A stretch of DNA of 60,040 nt, counting the filler, from Actinomycetota bacterium (lineage in GTDB: Bacteria; Actinomycetota; Acidimicrobiia; Spongiisociales; UBA4744): assembly GCA_013152275.1 (NCBI GenBank). It is 3 parts of 3 records of this genome, joined end to end, with 100 filler letters (N's around TTAATTAATTAA, not from the genome) between each part and the next. Parts side by side here need not be neighbours in the genome. Positions count along the whole stretch, not along the records: positions 1 to 25,338 come from JAADGS010000010.1; 2 more parts are not named here. One strand, written 5' to 3'. Within the stretch, counting starts at the first letter, position 1; each line of letters begins with the position of its first letter. Below the pieces are notes generated by a model, which searched no databases, was not told where the DNA came from, and was given only the letters and a program-made list of their open reading frames with translations. Shown here in pieces: positions 6,404 to 48,624 of the stretch. Made by a program: the position numbers and the translations under genes.

Positions 6404-6454
6404 TGAACCCAGGGTTCGTAGGGGTCGTGGCGACCCCCCTGAGCCCTGGGTTCA
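6404..6454 (+). repeat. 51-bp nested palindromic REP-like repeat, copy 1
   Basis: TGAACCCAGGGTTCGTAGGGGTCGTGGCGACCCCCCTGAGCCCTGGGTTCA, just after the fumC stop. Confidence 0.95.
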
Positions 6455-9719: not shown

Positions 9720-9770
9720 TGAACCCAGGGCTCGTAGGGGTCGTGGCGACCCCCCTGAGCCCTGGGTTCA
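9720..9770 (+). repeat. 51-bp REP-like repeat, copy 2
   Basis: Near-identical to copy 1; this copy has a perfect 14-bp outer stem. Confidence 0.95.
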
Positions 9771-9849
9771 GCGCGAGGGGCGGGAGATCGCGAAAACCAA
9801 CTACCCCTTCCCACGACGCGGACGACAATTGCGCGCCACAATATGAAAG

Positions 9850-10479
9850 GTGAATCAGGTCTCAACTTCGGATAGCGTCACACTTCCGCCCACCGCGCGC
9901 GGAAGAGCGACCCGCCAGGCACTGCTCGACGCCGCCGAAGAGGTCTTCGGCGAGTTCACCTACGAGCGGGCCTCGGTCGCGGAGATCACACGGCGCGCCG
10001 GCGTCGCCCAGGGCACCTTCTACGTCTACTTCCCCGACAAGAAGGCGGCCTTCATCGAGCTGGTGAAAGAGCTGAACCACGGACTGCGCAAGGCCATCGC
10101 AATGTCGATCGAGGGCCTCACCGACCGCATCGCGATCGAACGGACGGGCTTTCGCACCTTCTACGACTACGTGTCACGCCACAACGCCCTCTACAAGATC
10201 GTGCGCGAGGCCGAGTTCGTCAGCCCCGAGATCTACCGCTGGCACTACGGGCGCCTCGCCGAAGGCTACGTCAAGGGCCTCGAGGCGGCGATCGCCGACG
10301 GCCAGCTCCGCCCGGACCTCGACGTCCACACCATCTCCTACGTGCTCATGGGCATCGCCGAATTCACCGGAGGCCAATGGGTGCTCGGCGAGGGACGGCC
10401 ACCCCCCGACGACGTATTCGAACAGATCATCGGCTTCGTCGAACGGGGCCTCGACGCCCAGAAGGGAACGACACGGTGA
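9850..10479 (+). CDS. TetR/AcrR family regulator (start approximate)
   Basis: HTH ASVAEITRRAGVAQGTFYVYFPDK. Confidence 0.93.
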   Translation: MNQVSTSDSVTLPPTARGRATRQALLDAAEEVFGEFTYERASVAEITRRAGVAQGTFYVYFPDKKAAFIELVKELNHGLRKAIAMSIEGLTDRIAIERTGFRTFYDYVSRHNALYKIVREAEFVSPEIYRWHYGRLAEGYVKGLEAAIADGQLRPDLDVHTISYVLMGIAEFTGGQWVLGEGRPPPDDVFEQIIGFVERGLDAQKGTTR

Positions 10480-11528
10480 CCAGAGACATTCGTGCGAGCA
10501 CGATCACCACCTCCAGGATCAGGACCAGGGTGCTGACATGCGGCCCCGACGGCGGGACCCCGGTGCTCTTCCTGCACGGCAACCTGTCGTCGGCGACCTG
10601 GTGGGAATCGACGATGATCTCCCTCCCGGCGGGCTACCGGGCGATCGCCGCGGACCAACGCGGGTTCGGTGACGCCGACCCCGACGCGAAGATCGACGCG
10701 ACCCGTGGCCTCGGGGACCTCGCCGAGGACACGATCGCCCTGCTCGACCAGCTCGGCATCGAGCGCGCCCACCTCGTCGGCAACTCGCTCGGCGGCGTCG
10801 TCGCATGGCGCCTCATCGCCGAGCACGCGAGCCGCTGGATCACCGTCACACAGGTCGATCCCGGCTCACCGTTCGGTTTCGGCAGCACCAAAGACGCCGA
10901 AGGGACCCCCTGCTGGGACGATTACGCGGGCTCCGGGGCCGGGCTCATCAACCCCGAGTTCGTCCGTCTCCTCGCCTCGGGCGACCGCTCCACCGACTCG
11001 ATGTTCTCCCCCCGCTCGATGCTGCGCACCGCCCTGCTCGCCGAGCCCCGGGTCCTGGATCGTGAGGACGCCATCGTCGACGCCATGCTCGCCACCCACC
11101 TCGGCGAGCACGACTATCCGGGCGACGCCGTCGAATCGCCCAACTGGCCGTTCGTCGCCCCCGGCGTGTGGGGCCCCAACAACGCCCTGTCGCCCAAGTT
11201 CACCGCGGAGGCGGCCGGCGTCGTCGCAGCCGCACCGAAACCGCCGATCCTGTGGATACGAGGCGCCGGCGACCGCATCGTCTCCGACGCGTCGATCACC
11301 GACCTGGGGACGCTCGGCCCGACCGGGGTGATCCCCAACTACCCGGGCGCCGACGTCTATCCGCCCCAGCCGATGGTGGCCCAGATCCGGCACATGCTCG
11401 ACGCCTACGCGGCGGCCGGCGGCACGTACGAGGAGGTCGTCATCGATCGGGCGGGACACATGCCGTTCCTCGAGCGGCCCGACGAGTTCAACGCCACATT
11501 TCACCCCTATCTCCAATCCCATGGGTAA
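10476..11528 (+). CDS. Alpha/beta hydrolase
   Basis: FLHGN, DQRGFG, GNSLGG nucleophile elbow, AGHMPF; GTG overlaps the TetR stop. Confidence 0.9.
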   Translation: MTRDIRASTITTSRIRTRVLTCGPDGGTPVLFLHGNLSSATWWESTMISLPAGYRAIAADQRGFGDADPDAKIDATRGLGDLAEDTIALLDQLGIERAHLVGNSLGGVVAWRLIAEHASRWITVTQVDPGSPFGFGSTKDAEGTPCWDDYAGSGAGLINPEFVRLLASGDRSTDSMFSPRSMLRTALLAEPRVLDREDAIVDAMLATHLGEHDYPGDAVESPNWPFVAPGVWGPNNALSPKFTAEAAGVVAAAPKPPILWIRGAGDRIVSDASITDLGTLGPTGVIPNYPGADVYPPQPMVAQIRHMLDAYAAAGGTYEEVVIDRAGHMPFLERPDEFNATFHPYLQSHG

Positions 11529-11588
11529 CAACGTTCAACGACACATCTCGCCCCCATCCCCAATCCAGTAGGTAATGAGGAGGAACGA

Positions 11589-12974
11589 ATGAGAATCAAC
11601 CGACTGCGGCTCCCGGCGCTGCTCATCGTGATGGCGGTCATCGCGGTGGCGTGCACGAGCGGGGCCACGACGACCACGACGCAGGCGGCAACGACCACGA
11701 CGCAGGCGGCAACGAGCACGACACAGGCCGTGACGAGCACGACACAGGCTGCGACGAGCACGACGGCCGCGCAGGCGGCGGCCGGCGGTGTCAACTGTGA
11801 CAAGCCCGTCACGGTGGGCGTGATCACCGACCAGACCGGCCCGCTGGCGATCTACGGTGCACACATCCTGCGAGGCGTGCCGATCGGATTCGAGTACGCG
11901 ACCGGCGCCGCCGGGACCGACGGCGTCTACAAGCTGGACAACTGTGAGATCCGTGTCGTCTTCAAGGACGACCAGACCAACCCCGAGATGAGCGCCACGG
12001 ACGCCCGCGAGCTCATCGAGGTCGAAGGCGCCGACATCCTCATCGGGACGGTCAGCTCCGGCGTGACCGCCACGCTGCAGGAGATCGCCCGAGAGAACGA
12101 CGTCATCCTGATCGCCGCACCGGCGGCGGCCAACGACCTGACCGGTGCCAACTTCAACCCGAACACGTTCCGCGTGTCCCGCAACAACTACCAGGACGCG
12201 ATCGCGCTCTGCCAGTACCTCACCAAGGAGTACAGCACGTTCGTGCAGATCGCCCCCGACTACTCCTTCGGGCGTGGTGGCGCCGCGGCGCTGCGTGACG
12301 CATGCACCTTCTACGGCGGGACGTTCCCGGCCGACGACGTGTTCGCTCCGGCCGACACGACCGACTTCACCCCCTACATGGAGCAGATCGCCGACGTCGA
12401 CGCCCAAGCCCTCCTCGTGACCTGGGCCGGCGGCGGGTTCGTCCCGTTGCTCCAGGCCGCCGTGGACCTCGGTGTGCTCGACAACAAGGTGCTCGTGTCA
12501 CCGTTCGTCGACAACGTCGTGCTGCCCGTGTTCTTCAAGAACGCGATCGGCTCGACCTCGACGATCCTGTACCACTACACCCTGCCGAACAACCCGATCA
12601 ACGACTACCTCGTCGATCAGGACCAGGCCCAGTTCTCGACATACCCTGATCTGTTCGACGCCGACGGGATGAACGCGGCGCTCCTCGTCGTTGCGGCACT
12701 CGAGGCCACCGGTGGGGCGGCCGACGCCGACTCGCTACGCTCCGCCATGGAAGGGTTGCAGTTCGACGGCCCCAAGGGCACGATCTTCATCCGTCCCGAG
12801 GATCACGTTGCGATCCAGGACATGTACGTCGTGACGCTCAAGAACGTCGACGATCCGGAGTTCCGCTACTTCGACTACGTGGAGACACTGCGGCCCGAGC
12901 CGCCCTGCCTGCTCGAAGGCGAGTACAAGTCCCGGTGCGGCGATCTGCCGGTGGGAAGCCTGAGCGGGAACTGA
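11589..12974 (+). CDS. Liv-type (branched-chain amino acid family) ABC substrate-binding lipoprotein
   Basis: Lipobox AVAC, Thr-rich linker, KDDQTNP, GTVSSG, PDYSFG, GPKG. Confidence 0.9.
   Translation: MRINRLRLPALLIVMAVIAVACTSGATTTTTQAATTTTQAATSTTQAVTSTTQAATSTTAAQAAAGGVNCDKPVTVGVITDQTGPLAIYGAHILRGVPIGFEYATGAAGTDGVYKLDNCEIRVVFKDDQTNPEMSATDARELIEVEGADILIGTVSSGVTATLQEIARENDVILIAAPAAANDLTGANFNPNTFRVSRNNYQDAIALCQYLTKEYSTFVQIAPDYSFGRGGAAALRDACTFYGGTFPADDVFAPADTTDFTPYMEQIADVDAQALLVTWAGGGFVPLLQAAVDLGVLDNKVLVSPFVDNVVLPVFFKNAIGSTSTILYHYTLPNNPINDYLVDQDQAQFSTYPDLFDADGMNAALLVVAALEATGGAADADSLRSAMEGLQFDGPKGTIFIRPEDHVAIQDMYVVTLKNVDDPEFRYFDYVETLRPEPPCLLEGEYKSRCGDLPVGSLSGN
11670..11765 (+). repeat. 21-bp coding tandem repeat (T[T/S]TTQA[A/V], about 4.5 units), flexible lipoprotein tether
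   Basis: ACGACCACGACGCAGGCGGCA-like units. Confidence 0.9.
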
Positions 12975-12985
12975 TCCGATACGCC

Positions 12986-13016
12986 GGGGGCGGACCGGAC
13001 GGTCCGGTCCGTCCCC
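12986..13016 (+). terminator. GC-rich hairpin after the SBP gene (mRNA stabiliser or partial terminator)
   Basis: GGGGGCGGACCGGAC / GTCCGGTCCGTCCCC inverted repeat. Confidence 0.55.
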
Positions 13017-13031
13017 CACACCTATGGAGAT

Positions 13032-13823
13032 GTGACGGTGGGTGAGGTCATTCTCGAGACGCGCGGACTTCGCAAGGAGTTCGACGCGCTCGTCGCGGTC
13101 GACGACGTGGACATTCGCATCGAAGCGGGTGCCTTCCACTCGATCATCGGTCCGAACGGGGCGGGCAAGACCACCCTGTTCAACCTGATCAGCGGCACGA
13201 TGCAACCCACCCGCGGCCAGGTGCTGTACAAAGGCAGGGACATCACCCGTCTGCACGCCCACCGGGCCATCCACCTGGGGATCGGCCGCTCGTTCCAGAT
13301 CACCAACCTGTTCCCCAACCTCACCGTCCTGGAGAACGTGCGCCTCGCCGCCCAGGCGATGGGCCACGACAACTTTCGAATCCTGCGCTCCCACCGCAAG
13401 TTCACCTCCTATCTGGATCGTGCCGCCGAGGTGCTCGACCTGGTGGAGCTCGCCGACCGGGCGGCGTTCCCCGCACGCGCCCTGCCCCACGGCGACCAGC
13501 GGAAGCTCGAACTCGGCATGATCCTCGCCCCGAACCCGGAGGTGCTCATGCTCGACGAGCCCACCGCGGGGATGGCCGCCGAGCAGGTCCCCGGGCTGAT
13601 GCGCCTCATCGCCTCCATCCAGGAGGCCGGCGACAAGACGGTCGTGCTCGTCGAACACAACATGAATGTGGTCATGAGCGCCTCGGATCGCATCACGGTG
13701 ATGCATCACGGTTCGGTCCTCACCGAGGGGTCCCCCGAAGAGGTCGCCGCCGACGAGAACGTCCAGACCGCCTACCTGGGCAGCCTCTTCGGTGGCGGCA
13801 TGCCGGAAGGCACGACGCCATGA
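13032..13823 (+). CDS. Liv-type ABC ATP-binding protein (LivG-like)
   Basis: GPNGAGKTT, RSFQITNLF, LDEPTAG, VEHNM. Confidence 0.95.
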   Translation: MTVGEVILETRGLRKEFDALVAVDDVDIRIEAGAFHSIIGPNGAGKTTLFNLISGTMQPTRGQVLYKGRDITRLHAHRAIHLGIGRSFQITNLFPNLTVLENVRLAAQAMGHDNFRILRSHRKFTSYLDRAAEVLDLVELADRAAFPARALPHGDQRKLELGMILAPNPEVLMLDEPTAGMAAEQVPGLMRLIASIQEAGDKTVVLVEHNMNVVMSASDRITVMHHGSVLTEGSPEEVAADENVQTAYLGSLFGGGMPEGTTP

Positions 13824-14521
13824 ACCTGCTCGAGCTCCGTGACGTCGACACGTTCATCGGCCAATACCACATCCTCGAAGGCGTCTCCCTGGACGTCCCC
13901 GAAGGGTCCATCGTCGCGCTGCTGGGACGCAACGGCGCCGGCAAGACCACCACGCTGCGCACGATCATGGGACTCACTCCGGCCTCGTCCGGTTCGGTGC
14001 GTTTCGCCGGCGAGGACATCACCGCGCGTCCCGCCTACGAGATCGGGACGCTCGGGATCGGCTACGTGCCCGAGCATCGGGCGATCTTCTCCGATCTGAC
14101 CGTCGAGGAGAACCTGCGTCTCGCAGAACGTCGAAAAGGCGACCTGGCCCGCAAGGCCGACCTCATCTTCTCGCTGTTCCCCGACCTGGAGCGCCTCGCA
14201 CGACACTCCGGCACGAAACTGTCGGGCGGGCAGCAGCAGATGCTCGCCGTCGCGAGGGCGCTGGTTCCCGACAACCGCCTCCTGCTCATCGACGAGCCGA
14301 GTGAAGGCCTCGCCCCCGTCCTCGTCGAACAGATGGTCGAGGCGATCCGGGCGCTCTCGGACCACACGACGGTGCTGCTCGTCGAACAGAACTTCGCGGT
14401 GGCGAGCTACGTCGCCGAGCACTACGTGATCGTCGAGGAGGGCACCAGCGTCCTTTCGGGCGCCATCGCCGACCTCGTCACCGACAAGGAAACGATCACC
14501 CGCTACCTGGGGGTCGCATGA
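13820..14521 (+). CDS. Liv-type ABC ATP-binding protein (LivF-like)
   Basis: GRNGAGKTT, LSGGQQQML, DEPSEGLAP, VEQN. Confidence 0.95.
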   Translation: MNLLELRDVDTFIGQYHILEGVSLDVPEGSIVALLGRNGAGKTTTLRTIMGLTPASSGSVRFAGEDITARPAYEIGTLGIGYVPEHRAIFSDLTVEENLRLAERRKGDLARKADLIFSLFPDLERLARHSGTKLSGGQQQMLAVARALVPDNRLLLIDEPSEGLAPVLVEQMVEAIRALSDHTTVLLVEQNFAVASYVAEHYVIVEEGTSVLSGAIADLVTDKETITRYLGVA

Positions 14522-16086
14522 CCGCCCCGACAGCGTCGTCCAGGCGAGCCGTCTGGTTCCACCGCAACCGGACACGCATCACCGTGCTCGCCGTGCTCGG
14601 ATTCCTGTTCCTCGCCGCGCTCGGAGGCCTGGACCGTGAAGACTGGCTGATCACGATCCTGCGGGGTCTCGCCGTCGGGGCGATCACCTTCCTCGTCGCG
14701 TCGGGACTGTCACTGATCTTCGGACTGATGGACGTCCTGAACCTGGCCCACGGCGAGATCTTCATGCTCGGCGCCTACCTCGGATGGACCGTCTACACAC
14801 GCCCCGACACGGTCGTCGACGTGTTCGTCCCGATGCTCCTGCTCGGAGCGCCGCTGGTGTTGATGCCGTGGCTGCGTCGCGGCGCCGCACGACTGCGCGG
14901 CGGCGGGAGACGTAAGGCGCTCGCCGTGGGGCTGCTCGTCGCCGGTGCAGCCGGGACGGTGGCCGCGGTCGCCCGCTTCCCGCTGGCGATCTGGAACCCC
15001 GGCGTGTACACGCAGAGCCCGATCACCTACTCGCTGGCGATCGACATGGGGACCCTCGCGCCGCTGCCCAGAGGCTCGTTCGCCGGGTCGCCGCTCCTGG
15101 TCGTCGTCGGCCTGCTCGTCGCCGTCGTCGTGTTCGCCGTCGCCCTCCAGGCCCTGGCCGGCAGGCCGGGCGGGACGGCGCGCGTCTCGCCCCGACGTCT
15201 CACCGTCTCGCTCGCGATGGCCGGCGCCGCCGTCGCGCTGCTCGTGGCGCGCGACCCGGTCGTCGGATGGCTGTTCACCCTGAGTACGACCACACGGTTC
15301 CTCCTCGCGATCGTCGTGGCGGTGCTGCTCGGCGGCGGCCTCGGCGCGATCATCGAGGTGACCCTGATCCGCCCCCTGTACGAGCGTCCCATCTATCAGC
15401 TCATGGTGACTCTCGGGCTGGGGTTCGTCCTCATCGAACTGGTCCGCTCCGTGTGGGGACGGCCCGAGTTCACGATGGCGAAACCCGCCGCGTTCGCCGG
15501 GACCGGCGCCGGTTGTCCCGCCGAAGGGTTCCGAGGGCTGTTCAGCGGCTGTTCGACGGTCAAGATGTTCGGGGGGAGGGTGCGGACCTACAACGAGGCG
15601 TTCGTGATCGCGGTCGGGGTCCTCGTGCTCGTCACCGTCGCGCTGATCCTGAAGCGGACCCGCATCGGCATGATCATCAGGGCCGGTGTGCAGGACCGCG
15701 AAATGGTCGAGGCGCTCGGCATCAACGTGCGGCGCGTCTTCACGCTCGTGTTCGCGATCGGGACCGGTCTCGCCGCCCTCGGCGGTGTCATCGCAGCCCC
15801 TTCGATGGGACTGTCACCGCAGATGGGCGGCACCCTGCTGCTGCTGGCACTCATCGCGCTCGCGATCGGCGGGCTGACGAGCTTCCCCGGCGCGGCGGCG
15901 GGAGCCGTGCTCGTCGGGCTCGTCCAACAGTTCATCATCCGCTACGGACAGATCGGCATCGACCTTCCGTTCCTCGCCGAGCCGTTCAAACCGTCTCCGC
16001 CGCTCGTGCCAGCGTCGACGGTGCTGCTCATGGTCGTGATCCTGCTGCTGCTGCCCAACGGCCTGTTCGGAAAGAGCTCACGATGA
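14518..16086 (+). CDS. Liv-type ABC permease (LivH-like) with a large internal membrane insertion
   Basis: GLSLIFGLMDVLNLAHGE, GMIIRAG..DREMVEALGIN; 522 aa. Confidence 0.9.
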   Translation: MTAPTASSRRAVWFHRNRTRITVLAVLGFLFLAALGGLDREDWLITILRGLAVGAITFLVASGLSLIFGLMDVLNLAHGEIFMLGAYLGWTVYTRPDTVVDVFVPMLLLGAPLVLMPWLRRGAARLRGGGRRKALAVGLLVAGAAGTVAAVARFPLAIWNPGVYTQSPITYSLAIDMGTLAPLPRGSFAGSPLLVVVGLLVAVVVFAVALQALAGRPGGTARVSPRRLTVSLAMAGAAVALLVARDPVVGWLFTLSTTTRFLLAIVVAVLLGGGLGAIIEVTLIRPLYERPIYQLMVTLGLGFVLIELVRSVWGRPEFTMAKPAAFAGTGAGCPAEGFRGLFSGCSTVKMFGGRVRTYNEAFVIAVGVLVLVTVALILKRTRIGMIIRAGVQDREMVEALGINVRRVFTLVFAIGTGLAALGGVIAAPSMGLSPQMGGTLLLLALIALAIGGLTSFPGAAAGAVLVGLVQQFIIRYGQIGIDLPFLAEPFKPSPPLVPASTVLLMVVILLLLPNGLFGKSSR

Positions 16087-17153
16087 TCGCGACCCTGCTC
16101 AGACGCCGCCGGTGGCTGATCGTCGTGACGCTCGCCGCGGTCGTGTTCCCGTTCGTCGTGTCGATCCTCGTCGACGGTGCCGGCCCCGGCGCGGTGCTCA
16201 GCAACCAGGACGGCAACGCCAAGTTCCTCGAAGGTCTCGCCATCGAGATCTTCATCCTCGCCCTGTACGCGATCAGCTACGACCTCGTCCTCGGCGTCGC
16301 CGGGCTGCTGTCGTTCGGGCACGCCATGTTCTTCGCCGTCGGCGCCTACACGATCGGGATCATGCTGCGCAGCTTCGACATGGCGTTCCTGCCCGCACTC
16401 GGCGTCGTGCTGATCGCGGCGATCCTGCAGGCCGTCCTGTTCGCCATCGTGCTGCCGCGCGTCAAGGGGATCACGTTCGCGCTCGTCACCCTCGGCCTCG
16501 CGTCCGCGTTCGCGATCATCATCCAGTCGACCGAACTGGCCGACTACGCCGGCGCCGAGATCGGTCTTCAGGGGGTCATCTCGCCCGCCTGGCTCGACAC
16601 GACCACCGAGCGGTTCCGTTTCTACCTCGTCGCCCTCACGATCCTGGTGATCGTCTACGTCGTCTACACGCGCCTCGTCGACTCGCCGACCGGAAAGGTT
16701 CTCGCCGGGATCCGCGAGAACGAGGACCGCGCCTCGATGCTGGGGTACAACACGTTCTGGTTCAAGCTGACCGCCCTGCTCGTGGCGTCCATAACCGCGG
16801 CGTTCGCCGGTGTGCTGCACACGCTGCACCAGCCGATCGTCACCCCCAACATCGCCGGTCTCGGCTGGACGGTCACCGCCCTGCTGGTCATCCTCATCGG
16901 CGGGGTCGGGACGGTGAGCGGAGCGGTCGTCGGCGCCGTCGTGTTCCGCCTCCTGCAGTTCTACCTCGACCGCTGGTTCGGCGGCGCCTCCAACATCCTG
17001 ATCGGGCTCGCCTACATCGCGCTGGTTCTCTACCTGCCGTTCGGAATCGTCGGAACGTGGCGGGCGAGATCGCTCCAGATCGCCGCCGGACGCAGGAGAC
17101 TCCTGTCGCGGCTCACCGGCAGGCACCCCGCCGCCGGGGGAGGGGGGTCCTGA
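16083..17153 (+). CDS. Liv-type ABC permease (LivM-like)
   Basis: GLLSFGHAMFFAVGAY, IRENEDRASMLGY; ATG 16083 overlaps the upstream stop. Confidence 0.92.
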   Translation: MIATLLRRRRWLIVVTLAAVVFPFVVSILVDGAGPGAVLSNQDGNAKFLEGLAIEIFILALYAISYDLVLGVAGLLSFGHAMFFAVGAYTIGIMLRSFDMAFLPALGVVLIAAILQAVLFAIVLPRVKGITFALVTLGLASAFAIIIQSTELADYAGAEIGLQGVISPAWLDTTTERFRFYLVALTILVIVYVVYTRLVDSPTGKVLAGIRENEDRASMLGYNTFWFKLTALLVASITAAFAGVLHTLHQPIVTPNIAGLGWTVTALLVILIGGVGTVSGAVVGAVVFRLLQFYLDRWFGGASNILIGLAYIALVLYLPFGIVGTWRARSLQIAAGRRRLLSRLTGRHPAAGGGGS

Positions 17154-18673
17154 TGCCCCTCGACACGCTGCTCGCGCGCCATGCCCGCTACTACCCGGAC
17201 AAGACGGCGGTCGTCTTCGGGGGCCACCGTCTCACGTTCAGGGAGTTCGACGTTCGGGTCAACCGTCTCGCCAACGCCCTGGGCGGGCTCGGGATCGCCA
17301 AAGGCGACAAGGTCGCGACCGTCCTCGACAACTCCCTGGAGCTGCTCGAGGTCTACCAGGCGGCCGCCAAGACAGGCATCGTGGTGGTCCCGCTCAGCCC
17401 GCTGCTGCGCGCCGGCGGCCTCTCGAACCAGATCGTCGACTCCGACGCCGTCGCGGTGATCACCCAGAGATCGATGGTGCCCCACGTCGACGCGGTACGT
17501 GACCGGCTCGGCGGCGTCGACCGGTTCATCCTCACCGACGCGACCGGTGTGCCCGGCTACGGCTCCTATCGAGAGCTCGTCGCGCACGCATCGGACGGNN
17601 NNNNNNNNNNNNNNACCCCCGACGACCCGTACAACATCATCTACTCGTCGGGAACGACGGGCCTGCCGAAGGGGATCGTGCACACGCACGCGATCCGCGA
17701 GGCGTACTGCACCGGGTTCGCGTCCTCATACCGGATTCACCCGGAGAGCGTCATCCTGCACGCCGGGTCCCTCGTGTTCAACGGGGCGTTCCTCACCCTC
17801 ATGCCCGCCTTCTACCTGGGCTGCACCTACGTGCTGCACCGCTCCTTCGACGCACGGGCGATGATCGACGCCATCGCCGCCGAAGCGGTGACGCACATCA
17901 TGACCGTGCCGTCCCAGCTCATCGACCTGCTCGCCCACGACGACTTCGACGAGGCGCACCTCGGGTCGCTGGAGATGATCTGCTCGGTCGGCGCGCCGTT
18001 GCACCTGGAACACAAACGTGAGATCGCCCGCCGGTTCCCCGCACGCTTCTACGAGCTGTACGGGCTCACCGAAGGGTTCATGACGATCCTCGATCGTGAC
18101 GACTTCGCCCGCAAACCCGACTCGGTCGGTGTGCCGCCACCGCTGTACGAGATGCGCATCGTCGGCGACGACGGGCTCGACGTGGCCGCCGGTGAGGTCG
18201 GCGAGATCGTCGGGCGGGGACCGACCACCATGCCCGGCTACTACCGGCGGCCCGATCTGACCGCCGACGCGATCCGCGACGGATGGCTCTATTCGGGCGA
18301 TCTCGGCTACGTCGACGACGACGGGTTCCTGTACCTCGTCGACCGCAAGAAGGACCTGATCATCTCCGGAGGCGTGAACGTCTACCCGAGGGACATCGAG
18401 GAGATCGTCGTCACCCATCCCGACGTCGCCGACGTCGCCGTGTTCGGCGTCCCCCACGAACGGTGGGGCGAGACGCCGGTCGCCGCAGTCGTCCTGCACG
18501 CCGGCGCGACGTCGTCACGCGAAACGATCATCGCCTGGGTGAACGAGCGGGTCTCGGCCCGCTTCCAGAAGATCGGCGACGTTACGATCCTCGACGCGTT
18601 CCCCCGCAGCGTCGCCGGCAAGACGCTGCGACGGGTCATCAAAGAGTCCTACACGGAAAGGGAGGTCACGTGA
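17153..18673 (+). CDS. Acyl-CoA synthetase (AMP-binding); small N gap at 17599-17614
   Basis: [33 protein letters not shown]. Confidence 0.93.
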
Positions 18674-19521
18674 ACGACCGAGATGTCGACACGAACGGGA
18701 TCCGGCTGCACTACCTCGAGTACGGCACGTCCGGGCCGACGCTGCTCCTGATGCCGGGTCTGACCGCCAACGCCCACTCGTTCGACGGGCTCATCGCCGC
18801 AGGTCTCGCCGAGCGGATGCGCGTCCTCGCCCTGGACCTGCGCGGCCGCGGCCTGAGCGACAAGCCCGACGGTGGCTACCGGATGAGCGATCACGCGGCC
18901 GACGTGCTCGGGCTCATGGATGCTCTCGACCTCGACCGGGTCGTGCTCGGCGGGCACTCCTTCGGGGGTCTGCTCACCTACCACATCGCCGCGTCGCATC
19001 CGGACCGGGTCGAGTCGTGTGTCGTGATCGACGCGCCCGCCGAGGTGGACGAGACGATCCTCGATCAGATCAAGCCGTCGCTGGACCGCCTCGACATGGT
19101 GCTGCCGTCCCGGGACGCCTACCTGGAGATGGTCAAGGCGATGCCGTACTTCGACGGCTGGTGGGATCCGGCCATCGATGGCTACGTTCGCGCCGACGTG
19201 CGGGAACAGGACGACGGGACGGTGCGGGCCCGCTCGCGTCCCGAGCACATCCGCGCCGCCGTCGAGGGCACCCTCGAGATCGACTGGCCCGAGGTGGTCG
19301 CCTCGATCGAACGGCCACTGCTGTTCCTGCGGGCGCCGGACCCGTTCGGGCCGCCCGGCTCCCCACCCCTCGTGGCCGAAGCGAAGGCACACGCCACGAT
19401 GGCCCTGCTTCGCGACGGGCGCCTCGTGGAGATCCCCGGCAATCACATGACGTGCCTGTTCGGGTCGTCGGCGGTGAAGGCGGTCGAGGCCATCGAGGCG
19501 TTCGTGTTGGAGGACCGATGA
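18670..19521 (+). CDS. Alpha/beta hydrolase
   Basis: [26 protein letters not shown]. Confidence 0.9.
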
Positions 19522-20516
19522 AACGGGTCGACCTGCTCGATGTCGGAACGTGGATGCCGCAACGCTGGATGTCCGCCGCGCAGATCGGCGCCGCGGCCGG
19601 TATCGACGAGGAGGTGATCGTCGAACGTTTCGGCCTGGACGGCAAGCACATCGCCGGACCGGACGACCACGTCTCCACGATGAGTGCCGGTGCCGGCGCC
19701 GTGGCGCTGCAACGCGCAGGCGTCGAACCGGACGAGGTCGACGTGGTCGCCTACTTCGGGTCGATGTGGAAGGACTACCTCGTCTGGTCGGCGTCACCGA
19801 AGATCGCCGACCTCGTCGGGGCGCACAACGCGTGGGCACTCGAGATGGGCAACGTGTCGTGCGGGACGCCGGTCGCACTCAAGGCGGTGGGGGACATGCT
19901 GCGGGGCTCGGACGACGTCGAAACGGTCCTGCTGGTCGGTGCGAGCCGAGAGTCGCATCTGCTCGACTACACGAACCGCCGGTCACGCTTCATGTTCAAC
20001 TTCGGTGACGGTGCCGCGGCGGCGGTGCTGTCGACCCGGCGTCGCGGTCACGAGATCGTCGCGTCGGCGGTCATCACCGACGGGCGGTTCGCCGACGACG
20101 TCGCGGTGTACGCCGGCGGCAGCCGCAACCCGGCCTCGCTGGAGACGGTGCGGGAGCGCCGTCACTGCCTCGACGTTCGCGATCCCGCGTCGATGAAGGA
20201 GCGGCTCGACCCGGTGTCGGGAGCGAACTTCGTCGGTGTGGCGCGCCGCGCCTGCGAGCGTGCAGGGATCAGCCCGGCGGATCTGGCGCTGCTGGCGCCG
20301 CTGCACTTCAAACGTTCCCTGTTCGAGTGGACGATCTCCGAGCTTGGCGTGCCCGAGGAGAAGACGGTGTATCTGCGCCGTCACGGGCACATGTCGGGCA
20401 TCGATCCGCTGGTCGGTCTGGACGAGAAGAGAGACGAGCTCGAAGCCGGCGACTGGGTGCTGTTGCTGTCGGCGGGCACCGGGTACACGTGGGCTGCGAC
20501 GGTGGTGAGGTGGTGA
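19518..20516 (+). CDS. 3-oxoacyl-ACP synthase III-like (FabH-like) condensing enzyme, Cys-His-His variant
   Basis: NVSCG, FGDGAAA, LHFK, HGHM, AGTGYTWAA. Confidence 0.88.
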   Translation: MKRVDLLDVGTWMPQRWMSAAQIGAAAGIDEEVIVERFGLDGKHIAGPDDHVSTMSAGAGAVALQRAGVEPDEVDVVAYFGSMWKDYLVWSASPKIADLVGAHNAWALEMGNVSCGTPVALKAVGDMLRGSDDVETVLLVGASRESHLLDYTNRRSRFMFNFGDGAAAAVLSTRRRGHEIVASAVITDGRFADDVAVYAGGSRNPASLETVRERRHCLDVRDPASMKERLDPVSGANFVGVARRACERAGISPADLALLAPLHFKRSLFEWTISELGVPEEKTVYLRRHGHMSGIDPLVGLDEKRDELEAGDWVLLLSAGTGYTWAATVVRW

Positions 20517-20591
20517 GGTGAGTGTGGAGGCGTTTGATCGGGTCGGTGCGGGTGTGCTTGGTGGTGGCAGGTGGTGTTGGGAGGTGGCGAG

Positions 20592-22091
20592 ATGAGTGTT
20601 GATGCCTTCGATTGGATCGGCTACCACGCCGATGTGCGTCCCGGTGCGGTGGCGCTCATCGACGACTACACGAACCGCACGTTCACCTACGGCCGGCTCG
20701 ACGCGCGGGTGCGGGCGATGGCCGTGTGGCTGGCACACAAGGGGGTGGGGGAGGGCGACAGGGTCGCGTTCCTGTCGGCGAACACGACCGACATCTTCGA
20801 CGTCCTGTTCGCGTGCGCCCACCTTCGCGCGATCCTCGTGCCGCTCAACTGGCGGCTCGCGGTCCCGGAGCTGCAGTTCATCGTCGACGATTCGGAACCC
20901 AAGGTGCTGATCTACGAGGACCAGTTCGCCGGCGCCGCGGCGCAGCTGAACGTGGCCGAGGGGCTCGCGTTGGGGGAGCCGTACGAGGAGGCGCTCGACG
21001 CCCACGACCCGGCGGGTGCGCCGGACGTCGTCGCCGTCCACGACGACCCGTGGGCGATCATGTACACGTCGGGGACGACCGGGCATCCCAAGGGTGCGAT
21101 CGTCACGCACGGGATGTTCTTCTGGAACGCGATCAACATGGGCGACGCGGTCGGTCTCACGCAGCGTTCGGGGAACCTCAATGTCCTGCCGACGTTTCAC
21201 ACCGGCGGTCTGAACCTGTACACGACGCCGTGTCTTCGCCTCGGGGCGAGGTCCGTGAACCTGCGCGAGTTCGACCCGCAGAAGCTGCTGTCGTGGCTGA
21301 CGTCGGGTGAGATCACCCATTTCTTCGGGGTGCCGGCCGTCTACCAGTTCCTTGCGGAGGATCCGGCGTGGGCGGACGCCGATCTGTCGAAGGTGACCTC
21401 GTGGGCGAGCGGCGGTTCCGCGCTGCCGGTGGCGTTGCTGGAGCGTTACGCCGAGCGGGGGGTTGTGATCCGCCAGGGGATGGGGCTGACCGAGACGAGC
21501 CCGACGCTGTTCCTCACCGACGAGGAGCACGCCCTGTCGAAGGCCGGGTCGGTGGGCAAGCCGGTGCTGCACACCGCCATCCGCATCGTGGACGAGGCCG
21601 GGCGGGACGTGGCGCGCGGCGAGATCGGCGAGTTGTGGGCGAAGGGTCCGAACGTGACGCCCGGGTACTGGCATCGGCCCGACGCCAACGCGGCGTCGTT
21701 CACCGACGGGTGGCTGCACACCGGCGACGCGGCGCGGATGGACGACGACGGGTACGTGTTCATCGTCGACCGGTGGAAGGACATGTTCATCTCCGGCGGG
21801 GAGAACGTGTATCCGGCCGAGGTCGAGCAGGTGCTGTTCCGGCATCCGAACGTGCTCGACGTCGCGGTGATCGGCGTACCCGACGAGCGGTGGGGCGAGG
21901 TCGGTGTGGCGGTGGTCGTGCCGCGCGACGCCGACGCGTTCGACGCGGACGAGCTGCTCGGCTTTTGTGACGGCAGGCTGGCCCGCTACAAGATCCCGAA
22001 ACGGGCGGTGGTGGTGGACGAGCTGCCCCGCAACGCCGCCGGCAAGGTCCTCAAGCGGGTCCTCCGCGACACCCTCCCCCCCTGCTGTTGA
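20592..22091 (+). CDS. Long-chain acyl-CoA synthetase; stop codon supplied by REP copy 3
   Basis: YTSGTTGHPKG, GLTE, TGD, DMFISGGENVYPAEVE, LPRNAAGK. Confidence 0.94.
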   Translation: MSVDAFDWIGYHADVRPGAVALIDDYTNRTFTYGRLDARVRAMAVWLAHKGVGEGDRVAFLSANTTDIFDVLFACAHLRAILVPLNWRLAVPELQFIVDDSEPKVLIYEDQFAGAAAQLNVAEGLALGEPYEEALDAHDPAGAPDVVAVHDDPWAIMYTSGTTGHPKGAIVTHGMFFWNAINMGDAVGLTQRSGNLNVLPTFHTGGLNLYTTPCLRLGARSVNLREFDPQKLLSWLTSGEITHFFGVPAVYQFLAEDPAWADADLSKVTSWASGGSALPVALLERYAERGVVIRQGMGLTETSPTLFLTDEEHALSKAGSVGKPVLHTAIRIVDEAGRDVARGEIGELWAKGPNVTPGYWHRPDANAASFTDGWLHTGDAARMDDDGYVFIVDRWKDMFISGGENVYPAEVEQVLFRHPNVLDVAVIGVPDERWGEVGVAVVVPRDADAFDADELLGFCDGRLARYKIPKRAVVVDELPRNAAGKVLKRVLRDTLPPCC

Positions 22092-22211
22092 ACCCAGGGT
22101 TCGTAGGGGTCGTGGTGACCCCCCTGAGCCCAGGGTTCAACGAACCACCACCACCCCTGTTGAACCCAGGGTTCGTAGGGGTCGTGGTGACCCCCCTGAG
22201 CCCTGGGTTCA
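22089..22211 (+). repeat. REP-like doublet (copies 3 and 4: 22089-22139, 22161-22211; 72-bp period)
   Basis: Two direct 51-bp units just past the stop of the AbiEi/DUF559 gene. Confidence 0.95.
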
Positions 22212-22220
22212 ACGAAGGTG

Positions 22221-23120
22221 TTACTTCGCCAGGAGAGAACGGACCGTCTCGGCGACCTCCGCGGGGCGGGCCGTGAGGTCGTCCCACGTGAATCGGACGA
22301 GGCGCCAGTCGTGCAGCGTCGCCAGGCGGTTCCGGCGACGGTCACGTTCGAACGCCTCGACCTGGGTATGCCACCGTCGCGAATCCCACTCGATCGCGAG
22401 CTTCTTGTCGGGATACGCGGCATCGAAACGCCGGTGCTCGTCCCACGGAATCGGATACTCGAGCTGGGGATCGGGAAGTCGGGAGGATCGCAGAACGTCG
22501 AGACCGAGCAGTTCGAGCCGGCTCGCGTTCTCGTTGGGGGATTCGGCCCGTTCCCCGAGGATGGTTCGAAGAGATGTCGAGCCGGGTTTGCCTCGCCGCA
22601 GAACAGAGGAGGCGACGTCCCGCACCTCGGCGACGGTCAGCTTCTTGGAGGCGAGGAGATCATCGACGATCGACGCGAGGTGCTGGGGCCGCAGGAGCGC
22701 GGCGAGGTCGACGATCGTTCTGGCCATCGTGGTCACGGGCAAGCCATCGATCGTTGCGATGTGGGACTCGTCGAGGTCGTGGCTGCGGCGGATGGTGACG
22801 TCGGGGAAGTTGTGGGTGGTCCGGCTGTGGACGGTGACGACGGCGAGCCCCCGCCAGACGCGGGGGATCGAGAGCATCTCGGCCGCCGACTCGTGAGAGA
22901 CGACGGCGTCGGGCAGCCCTGCGACGGCGGCACGCAAGCGGTCCATGGGGTCCGTCATGTCGAAGATCCGGTACACCGAACGGGCGATGGATTGCCATCG
23001 GCCCGTGCGGACCCGCCTTCGGATCATGTCGACGGTCATGCCGTATTCGAGCACTTGGTCTTTCCTGATCACACCGCCTTGGCCGGCTGCCAGGTTGAGG
23101 ATGCGTTTGTCGGTCTGCAT
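22221..23120 (-). CDS. AbiEi-antitoxin-domain protein with C-terminal DUF559/Vsr-like endonuclease domain
   Basis: N-terminal AAGQGGVI..GRW..RSVY; VSHESAA; GLPVTT.ARTIVDLA; C-terminal RFDAAYPDKKLAIEWDSRRWH..DRRR..WRLVRFTW. Confidence 0.85.
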   Translation of the reverse strand: MQTDKRILNLAAGQGGVIRKDQVLEYGMTVDMIRRRVRTGRWQSIARSVYRIFDMTDPMDRLRAAVAGLPDAVVSHESAAEMLSIPRVWRGLAVVTVHSRTTHNFPDVTIRRSHDLDESHIATIDGLPVTTMARTIVDLAALLRPQHLASIVDDLLASKKLTVAEVRDVASSVLRRGKPGSTSLRTILGERAESPNENASRLELLGLDVLRSSRLPDPQLEYPIPWDEHRRFDAAYPDKKLAIEWDSRRWHTQVEAFERDRRRNRLATLHDWRLVRFTWDDLTARPAEVAETVRSLLAK

Positions 23121-23163
23121 GGCCCGATCATGAGGCATGGGTGTGACAGATCCCCGCCTCAAC

Positions 23164-23214
23164 TGAACCCTGGGTTCGTAGGGGTCGTGGCGACCCCCCT
23201 GAGCCCTGGGTTCA
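23164..23214 (+). repeat. 51-bp REP-like repeat, copy 5
   Basis: Lies 43 nt upstream of the AbiEi/DUF559 start codon. Confidence 0.95.
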
Positions 23215-24755: not shown

Positions 24756-24877
24756 TGAACCCTGGGTTCGTATGCGTCGTGGTGACCCCCCTGAGCCCTG
24801 GGTTCAAGGAACTCGCGCACCCCTGTTGAACCCTGGGTTCGTATGCGTCGTCACGACCCCCCTGAGCCCTGGGTTCA
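24756..24877 (+). repeat. REP-like doublet (copies 6 and 7: 24756-24806, 24827-24877; 71-bp period), diverged inner hairpin
   Basis: Outer arms conserved; inner GTAGGGGTCG changed to GTATGCGTCG; both preceded by GAACTCGCGCACCCC. Confidence 0.93.
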
Positions 24878-25338: not shown

Positions 25339-25438
25339 NNNNNNNNNNNNNNNNNNNNNNNNNNNNNNNNNNNNNNNNNNNNTTAATTAATTAANNNNNN
25401 NNNNNNNNNNNNNNNNNNNNNNNNNNNNNNNNNNNNNN
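25339..25438. other. Artificial contig-joining linker
   Basis: N-run + TTAATTAATTAA (stops in all frames) + N-run. Confidence 0.98.
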
Positions 25439-48524: not shown

Positions 48525-48624
48525 NNNNNNNNNNNNNNNNNNNNNNNNNNNNNNNNNNNNNNNNNNNNTTAATTAATTAANNNNNNNNNNNNNNNNNNNN
48601 NNNNNNNNNNNNNNNNNNNNNNNN
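48525..48624. other. Artificial contig-joining linker
   Basis: N-run + TTAATTAATTAA + N-run. Confidence 0.98.

Follow-up and report, generated by a model that had tools for sequence, protein, structure and literature searches.

An AbiEi-fold/Vsr-like nuclease fusion and the dispersed palindromes that bracket its gene in Acidimicrobiia

In REPtrons and TIRtrons, palindromes lie on either side of a single-copy, chromosomal and vertically inherited gene and also occur, dispersed, at gene ends, as described in the accessible portions of three reports (PMC6006769, PMC3733652, PMC5581495). For dispersed palindromes that do not belong to the GTAG class, no partner enzyme is known, as far as the available parts of two sources go: CGTC repeats are described without one (PMC3733652), and no mobility genes are reported near BoxC (PMC4666352). 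Also relevant here are AbiEi and Rv2827c, which bind inverted repeats in their own promoters (PMC7319586, in part), and I-Bth0305I, whose homodimer spans ~60 bp and cleaves a pseudopalindrome at its middle (PMC3239194, in part). The present analysis concerns a 60,040-nucleotide stretch of DNA (the window) from an Actinomycetota bacterium of the class Acidimicrobiia (GenBank assembly GCA_013152275.1, 3.07 Mb, 100% complete; G000 below). The window joins three unlinked contigs (C95, C98 and C100), and the gene of interest has only positions 1-25338 as its own contig. This gene encodes an AbiEi-fold part fused to a Vsr-like nuclease, and it is bracketed by copies of a 49-bp palindrome that recurs throughout the genome. 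The pairing of nuclease gene and repeat is real, widespread and undescribed in the literature searched, and the activity of its enzyme is predicted.

The nuclease fusion and its palindrome family

Each repeat consists of two self-palindromic 13-bp arms (GAACCCWGGGYTC), 36 bp apart, that flank a 23-bp imperfect palindrome. The copy located 5' of the gene folds into a hairpin with internal mismatches (-19.3 kcal/mol, z -5.2). A strict pattern identifies 53 copies in G000 and its reversed-pattern control identifies 0; pattern searches give 53-58 copies overall, and 57 are found at <=12 mismatches. No copy falls inside a called gene, in a gene set that comes from a simple gene caller with the coordinates of one paralog corrected by hand. 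An initial sequence-only reading had described a lone AbiEi/Vsr-like nuclease gene bracketed by repeats, and its coordinates are confirmed: with the flanking T and A counted, 9 nt separate the second copy from the stop codon and 43 nt separate the ATG from the third copy. The dispersal of the repeat beyond the gene that was reported at the same time holds both in the window (Table 1) and genome-wide. There are no Rfam matches in positions 1-25400, and scans for sigma-70 promoters and terminators were negative at the repeats.

Among 106 half-interiors, 47 start with GTAG or GTAT and 52 start with AGGG. The GTAG/GGAG tetranucleotide found at the hairpin foot of REPs is missing here, as GTAG is just one variant among several within the arms and not the end of the element. 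The arm includes CCWGG, the Dcm/Vsr site; its candidacy as a meaningful site was dropped because other clades lack CCWGG. Because neighboring units can have an arm in common, 36-bp tandem arrays are formed, which are present at C62:35317-35440, C64:26364-26451 and C3:29769-29856 of G000 and also at L098.

The N-terminal part of the protein matches Pfam AbiEi_4 above the cut-off (residues 6-52, E 6e-7), and PADLOC AbiEi profiles cover residues 4-201 (E 9e-25). Toward the C terminus, REase_MTES_1575 matches residues 238-295 below the cut-off (E 1e-6), and the DUF559 profile has no match to the fusion itself and matches 100 of 121 aligned relatives (120 of them full-length hits among the best 150 family matches). 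In alignments of an AlphaFold2 model (pLDDT 95.5), the AbiEi part (residues 1-192) has the two-domain fold of AbiEi 6y8q (Z 12.0, rmsd 5.5, 179 residues) and also matches Rv2827c (Z 9.0). The best structural match to the nuclease domain (residues 197-299) is I-Bth0305I 3r3p (Z 12.3, rmsd 2.5), followed by NGO0050 3hrl (Z 12.1) and Vsr 1cw0 (Z 10.7), and the sequence profile agrees. Residues D233, E244 and R263 are invariant in the 121 sequences, and E203, D246, H251 and D260 are present in >=90% of them; a Vsr-like catalytic domain with conserved acidic and histidine residues is a trait of EDxHD enzymes. The middle domain (22545-22960, residues 56-192) is nucleotidyltransferase-fold-like with conserved S75, T130, R134, T135 and D138, and it may be a nucleotide binder.

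The family comprises 7,594 clusters at 50% identity (E <= 1e-10), whose members are annotated as antitoxin or hypothetical protein. Homologs are found in 70 of the 151 genomes of the class, with at most 9 matches per genome. Only 23 of 72,556 plasmid records match, none over 80% of the protein, and zero matches to the fusion were found among 50,697 phage records. Like REPtrons, the gene is chromosomal, vertically inherited and rare on mobile elements.

The association between gene and repeat extends to paralogs and to other genomes. All three fused paralogs in G000 are bracketed by their own dispersed palindrome families, and a stand-alone DUF559 gene is bracketed by a fourth, which is the REPtron trait of one family per gene; the third family, belonging to the paralog on C17, has 15, 13 and 18 copies in the three genus genomes. 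The 49-bp repeat lies within ~120 nt on both sides of only 3 of 2737 called genes. When any flank element common to both sides at an alignment score >=40 is accepted as bracketing, 11 of 1585 G000 genes of 600-1500 nt qualify, and three of these are the nuclease paralogs. We applied the same threshold to 93 homolog loci (4 in G000 and 89 from the top of the hit list), one of which has no upstream DNA. An up- and downstream element is shared at 72 of the remaining 92 loci (69/88 outside G000), versus 1 of 600 cross pairs, and this element folds with z <= -2 at 49 of the 72; 18 of 20 further family loci are likewise bracketed.

The repeats also vary with the proteins. Repeat and protein similarity are correlated over 71 loci (Mantel rho 0.21, p 0.0005), similar repeats being found in 5/5 cross-genome pairs with >60% protein identity, in <1% of 732 pairs with <30% identity, and in 2/40 same-genome paralog pairs. 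Copy numbers obtained with the strict pattern in 20 family genomes follow the gene: 54, 49, 35, 16, 18 and 24 copies in six genomes with the ortholog (the last divided between two contigs), 3 copies with a frameshifted ortholog, and 5, 3, 0 and ten times 0 copies in the 13 genomes where no ortholog was found. At L097 (G155:C26) and L339 the ortholog is frameshifted, and ~900 bp of other DNA separate it from the upstream repeat.

Stand-alone DUF559 genes are similar in this regard. At seven loci viewed in three other actinobacterial genomes, a Bacteroidia bin and one further bin, both flanks have C-run/G-run repeats, at score >=40 in five; a single-protein scan with a small DUF559 protein returned 2 loci only. 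The ycjD gene of E. coli has a C-run/G-run element, which is presumably BoxC, and this element occurs at a median of 16 places per E. coli genome. Because genes without an AbiEi part are bracketed too, the nuclease rather than AbiEi is the common denominator.

A REPtron-like pairing with an unrelated enzyme, as proposed from the sequence alone, is supported by every suggested test that was run, including those on paralog-specific repeat families, repeat/protein co-variation, the lack of a RAYT and empty sites. The absence of an AbiEii partner and of an HUH transposase, first noted for the window, is equally borne out. AbiEii has no match on the contigs C95, C98 and C100 and none beside any fused gene. 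There are six AbiEi_4 matches in G000, of which three adjoin AbiEii matches and three are the nuclease fusions; AbiEii matches lie on C21, C41, C78 and C92, the one on C78 not being beside an AbiEi_4 match. The HUH-Y1 transposase domain of REPtrons was not detected in the fusion by Pfam or fold search. Moreover, Y1_Tnp (PF01797) has no match in the complete G000 genome (the control rings in 6/14), and direct searches of five relatives gave none. None of the six genomes of the class that have this repeat pattern matches either, and 12 of the 151 class genomes do. The neighbors at both sites known to hold the gene are metabolic, transport or topA genes, and no cytosine methyltransferase, a trait of Vsr repair, adjoins it at either site (the rest of the genome was not searched).

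A PafBC-type promoter box at -28 to -7 probably links the gene to DNA damage. The PafBC consensus is tGTCgg(N10)tA(N3)T in the accessible portions of PMC8635444 and PMC5656591. The local form, which fits this consensus, starts with TGTCAC and has a T 21 nt later, and its -10 part begins with CA, not TA. A profile trained on 31 loci from elsewhere than G000, with recA outside the training set, ranks the nuclease gene 4th among G000 genes. The best-scoring genes include comM-like, UvrD/AdnAB-like, integrase, PD-(D/E)XK, SbcCD, RecQ-like, lexA, ruvC and DUF222 genes, and the recA upstream region also carries the box. In G000, pafA (Pup ligase), which marks the organism as an actinobacterium, is followed by two WYL genes, identified as pafBC by WYL domains and position only. 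Of 91 family loci, 35 have the box, compared with 47 of 2719 genes, and the C52 paralog has none. Judging from these promoter sequences, PafBC control of the nuclease gene, switched on by DNA damage, is likely, and the transcript would be leaderless. The strongest PafBC-type boxes of all belong to three DUF222 genes and a lone tyrosine integrase (C90:95136, C23:4780, C15:40615, C94:40735). The main text of PMC8151990 mentions none of six mycobacterial identifiers looked for.

Rewritten centers and competing explanations

The sister species G121 carries 49 copies of the repeat, of which 37 can be placed by synteny on both sides. At these 37 sites, G000 has 31 strict copies, 3 damaged copies and 3 sites with none, and the repeat sites are mostly old. 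One of the three sites without a copy, L211, is a clean 69-bp presence/absence between overlapping stop codons. The suggestion made from the sequence that the nuclease might "spread or maintain" its repeats is thereby divided: maintenance agrees with this shared occupancy and with centers that have been rewritten in place, and spread fits less well.

Rewriting was assessed at 27 one-to-one pairs, after exclusion of 22 of the 49 copies for lack of synteny, as doublets, or for damage, absence or a change in length. The interiors of orthologous copies differ at 11.3 of 23 positions, and those of copies within G000 differ at 3.4 of 23; repeat-free intergenic DNA is 81% identical between the two species (154 regions). 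The central 15 bp are identical at 148 of 405 positions (36.5%; shuffled 36.8%). The 8 bp immediately inward of the arms agree at 168 of 216 (78%; shuffled 60%, p 0.0002), and the A/T position of the arm is identical in 31 of 54 cases, which is not above shuffled. The arms have 0/390 mismatches at 15/15 sites located by synteny within 780 kb of the G121 genome; these sites were used because choosing copies by their arm pattern would be circular. Proximity does not make copies more similar (3.2 mismatches between nearby copies vs 3.3 between distant ones), and two G000 copies with damaged arms (L213, L215) retain old-style centers. Because the inner 8 bp keep a memory of their position, replacement of whole elements is disfavored, and independent mutation would not account for the likeness of ~50 copies. 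These data point to the replacement of the central 15 bp in place by short conversion tracts around the axis, with sites that have not moved and no hopping. Copies at C29:16001-16123 and C86:14560 of G000 have outer flank letters in common with the copy 5' of the nuclease gene, hinting that tracts sometimes extend beyond the arms.

It is very probable that the nuclease fusion acts on its repeat in some way. A more specific reading, to which we assign a probability of about 0.55, is that the fusion is the partner enzyme of the bracketing palindrome. DNA damage would induce its synthesis via PafBC, and its AbiEi parts would bind the two fixed arms, perhaps as a dimer that, on the model of I-Bth0305I, associates via its nuclease domains. 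The nuclease might then nick or cut near the center of the palindrome, and repair by short conversion from another copy would overwrite the central 15 bp. The same events, if resolved as crossovers, could occasionally move or delete repeat-bounded blocks, the nuclease gene included.

Several observations weigh against this reading. The rewriting test covers a single pair of species and 27 of the 49 copies. It was also applied to the second family, that of the C52 paralog, at fewer sites: although the gene is intact, this family has not been rewritten in G000, its orthologous interiors being closer than shuffled (p 0.001, 7 sites). Six of 11 second-family sites are intact in G121, where the C52 paralog was not found, and G157 has a C52-type paralog yet only 10 strict copies, compared with 11 and 7 where the paralog was not found. 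The missing promoter box of the C52 paralog may or may not be the cause of these unrewritten interiors. The box is present in only those 35 of the 91 family genes, and the intact ortholog in G154 lacks a clear one. No common flank element reaches the threshold at 20 of the 92 loci. The genomes without the gene are kin and perhaps represent 1-2 loss events, and several of them have a completeness of only 52-97%. The strict pattern, moreover, is fitted to the present clade. Finally, synteny breaks are enriched at repeat sites when all junctions are counted (5/18 vs 41/552, p 0.011), but not significantly at junctions >=40 nt (5/18 vs 41/316, p 0.085).

An unlikely alternative, but the one that survives best, is a RAYT-like mobilizer that excises or copies whole palindromes to new sites, so that homogeneity reflects turnover of entire elements. 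The REPtron architecture fits such an activity, and the repeat families must have arisen and dispersed at some time. The 3 of 37 syntenic G121 sites without a copy in G000 (including L211), the sites at which one family has been replaced by another, and the outer flank letters that distant copies share beyond chance (12 pairs vs 3.6, p 0.003) also agree with it. However, 31 of the 37 syntenic sites are occupied in both species, replacement of the whole element would erase the memory kept by the inner 8 bp, and no target-site rule is seen. A Vsr-type hydrolase is also not known to have a strand-joining step. At C3:55053 and at C26:70184, the intergenic site carries palindromes from different families in G000 and G121.

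It is less probable still that the fusion is a non-cutting operator-binding or chromosome-organizing factor that recognizes the arms, with hairpins that serve gene ends and host recombination that homogenizes them. Inverted-repeat binding by AbiEi and Rv2827c in their own promoters (PMC7319586, in part) offers a precedent, and the upstream copy ends a median of 45 nt before the start of bracketed genes (52/72 within 24-60 nt). Convergent gene pairs are also overrepresented where copies lie (22 of 53 internal copies vs 229 of 1388 junctions), and the Vsr fold appears among non-cutting RAP-type proteins in the fold matches. Against this, the most conserved columns are the acidic residues and the histidine at the nuclease site, and autoregulation needs no downstream copy. 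Furthermore, stand-alone nucleases without AbiEi are bracketed too, and passive conversion gives no cause for a tract confined to the center.

Slightly more doubtful is a role in mismatch or cruciform surveillance, in which the enzyme would nick mispaired bases of an extruded palindrome or heteroduplex and the patchwork centers would be a by-product of very-short-patch repair. Vsr nicks at T:G mismatches, and its fold, the DNA-repair regulon, the mismatched hairpin and the free recombination of repeat halves, centers and the arm's A/T position among copies are in keeping with this idea. A general repair enzyme, however, needs no private repeat family for each paralog. In addition, no methyltransferase adjoins the gene at either site, and there are up to 9 matches per genome. 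That the fusion is an orphan toxin-antitoxin or defense gene among unrelated repeats by chance, as its PADLOC AbiEi matches might suggest, is highly improbable given the bracketing and co-variation results, the fused genes without AbiEii, the lack of full-length plasmid and of phage matches in the records searched, and vertical descent.

Relocation of the gene and repeat-bounded blocks

The nuclease gene occupies one of two sites in related genomes. At site A, the locus in the window between the fumarase gene and fetA, all three genus genomes carry the gene, and G157 has a bare doublet. At site B, flanked by topA and a phosphatase gene, the gene is present in G157, G154, G155 and G158; G000 has a doublet there, and G121 and G151 have one copy each. 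The nuclease gene tree matches a quick topA tree and places site B as ancestral. Thus, the gene has moved once between two repeat-marked sites and has left reciprocal empty sites, a kind of evidence that the sequence-only reading had proposed to look for. Contigs from Logan yielded no reliable strain-level empty site, as they break at repeats, and a Logan joint that skips the nuclease gene was rejected as probably another doublet copy. No RNA dataset is among the sequencing runs listed for the sequence.

Site A has also been filled stepwise. Four more distant genomes have neither the repeat nor fetAB 3' of fumarase; fetAB lies between copies in G157, and the nuclease gene, the dehydrogenase cluster and, in G000, the 12.3-kb lipid block come after. 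Each of these blocks ends at a repeat copy. The lipid block was not found in G121, G151 or G157, and no border repeat was seen in 8 stretches of relatives that carry its genes. Genome-wide, such enrichment at the repeats is only a trend: it is not significant at >=40-nt junctions or within orientation classes, and the repeats are therefore not put forward as rearrangement hot spots in general. Elsewhere in G000 (C90:10985-11949), a 219-aa gene with an apparent nuclease-related motif, presumably of NERD type, lies between two identical repeat copies with ~19 nt of flank in common. This segment is missing from G121, as expected if a circle had integrated through one copy.

Table 1. Coordinates of the nuclease fusion gene, its repeats and associated features in the window
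Feature	Coordinates	Strand	Evidence
AbiEi-fold/Vsr-like nuclease fusion gene, 299 aa	22221..23120	-	ORF, Pfam, model, fold match; dN/dS ~0.24 (three orthologs)
AbiEi-like part, residues 1-192 (winged helix + nucleotidyltransferase-like domain)	22545..23120	-	Fold match 6y8q; PADLOC
Vsr-like nuclease domain, residues 197-299	22224..22532	-	Fold matches, conserved residues
PafBC-type promoter box	23127..23148	-	Starts 28 nt 5' of ATG; consensus from PMC8635444 (accessible portion)
Repeat copy 5' of nuclease gene	23165..23213	.	49-bp core
Repeat copy adjoining nuclease gene's stop codon	22162..22210	.	49-bp core
Second 3' repeat copy (72-bp doublet); right border of lipid-catabolism block	22090..22138	.	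49-bp core
Repeat copy 3' of fumarase gene; synteny breakpoint vs G121	6405..6453	.	Repeat match, synteny
Repeat copy 3' of dehydrogenase cluster; breakpoint vs G151; left border of lipid block	9721..9769	.	Repeat match, synteny
Repeat doublet (copies at 24757, 24828), fetB / RNA-binding-protein gene	24757..24876	.	Repeat match
Lipid-catabolism block, 12.3 kb, repeat-bounded; not found in three closest relatives searched	9770..22089	+	Synteny

The spacers of the window (25339-25438 and 48525-48624) are artificial, and short N runs break genes near 17614 and 26340. Additional long composite dispersed repeats (families F11/F15/F26 and F13/F22) occur on several contigs of G000 with no partner gene identified, and many of their copies are at contig ends.

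A wider interpretation can be offered tentatively. Fusions of this kind might form a widespread nuclease-repeat class, in which AbiEi modules retarget Vsr-like nucleases to private palindromic sites that are cut under PafBC control, have rewritten centers and double as landing sites, with DUF559/YcjD-BoxC as the form without the module. If this is true, the gene and blocks of host DNA would be gained, lost and moved via repeats, with an integron-like build-up at this locus.

Comparison with known systems

A full-text literature search, which was mostly outside subscription journals and excluded supplements, returned no paper that ties DUF559/MTES_1575 or AbiEi fusions to dispersed repeats, and the terms ycjD, nuclease and DUF occur 0 times in the available part of PMC4666352. 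An enzyme partner with no relation to RAYTs, a damage-inducible promoter and a 15-bp footprint would make repeat origin and concerted evolution directly testable. In addition, numerous natural pairs of protein and site, in which the binding part is modular, are candidate site-specific nickases or nucleases.

Beyond the single-copy gene and its dispersed palindromes, the system resembles REPtrons in that a genome has multiple paralogs with a separate repeat family for each (PMC6006769, PMC3733652, PMC5581495, accessible portions). The REPtron enzyme acts on single-stranded repeats, which it cleaves and joins again. With I-Bth0305I and the EDxHD homing endonucleases it has in common an N-terminal DNA-binding part, a C-terminal Vsr-like nuclease and a pseudopalindrome over ~60 bp, that of I-Bth0305I (PMC3239194, in part). 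However, there is no intron or intein here, and the gene does not interrupt its target: it lies beside intact putative targets, of which there are ~55 in its own chromosome, and empty sites keep 1-2 copies. The AbiEi/Rv2827c type IV antitoxins provide the whole two-domain fold (residues 1-192), and their known activity is inverted-repeat binding (PMC7319586, in part); the present protein differs in its fused nuclease, in the lack of AbiEii and in repeats that lie on both sides and genome-wide. E. coli Vsr and DUF559/YcjD have the same nuclease fold (PMC3424549 and PMC4666352, in part). Small DUF559 genes are likewise bracketed, by one conserved type of C-run/G-run repeat (on the 3' side only for ycjD), but they have no AbiEi part. 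The layout of the locus is REPtron-like, but the gene does not belong to the RAYT, AbiE, homing-endonuclease or Vsr-repair families.

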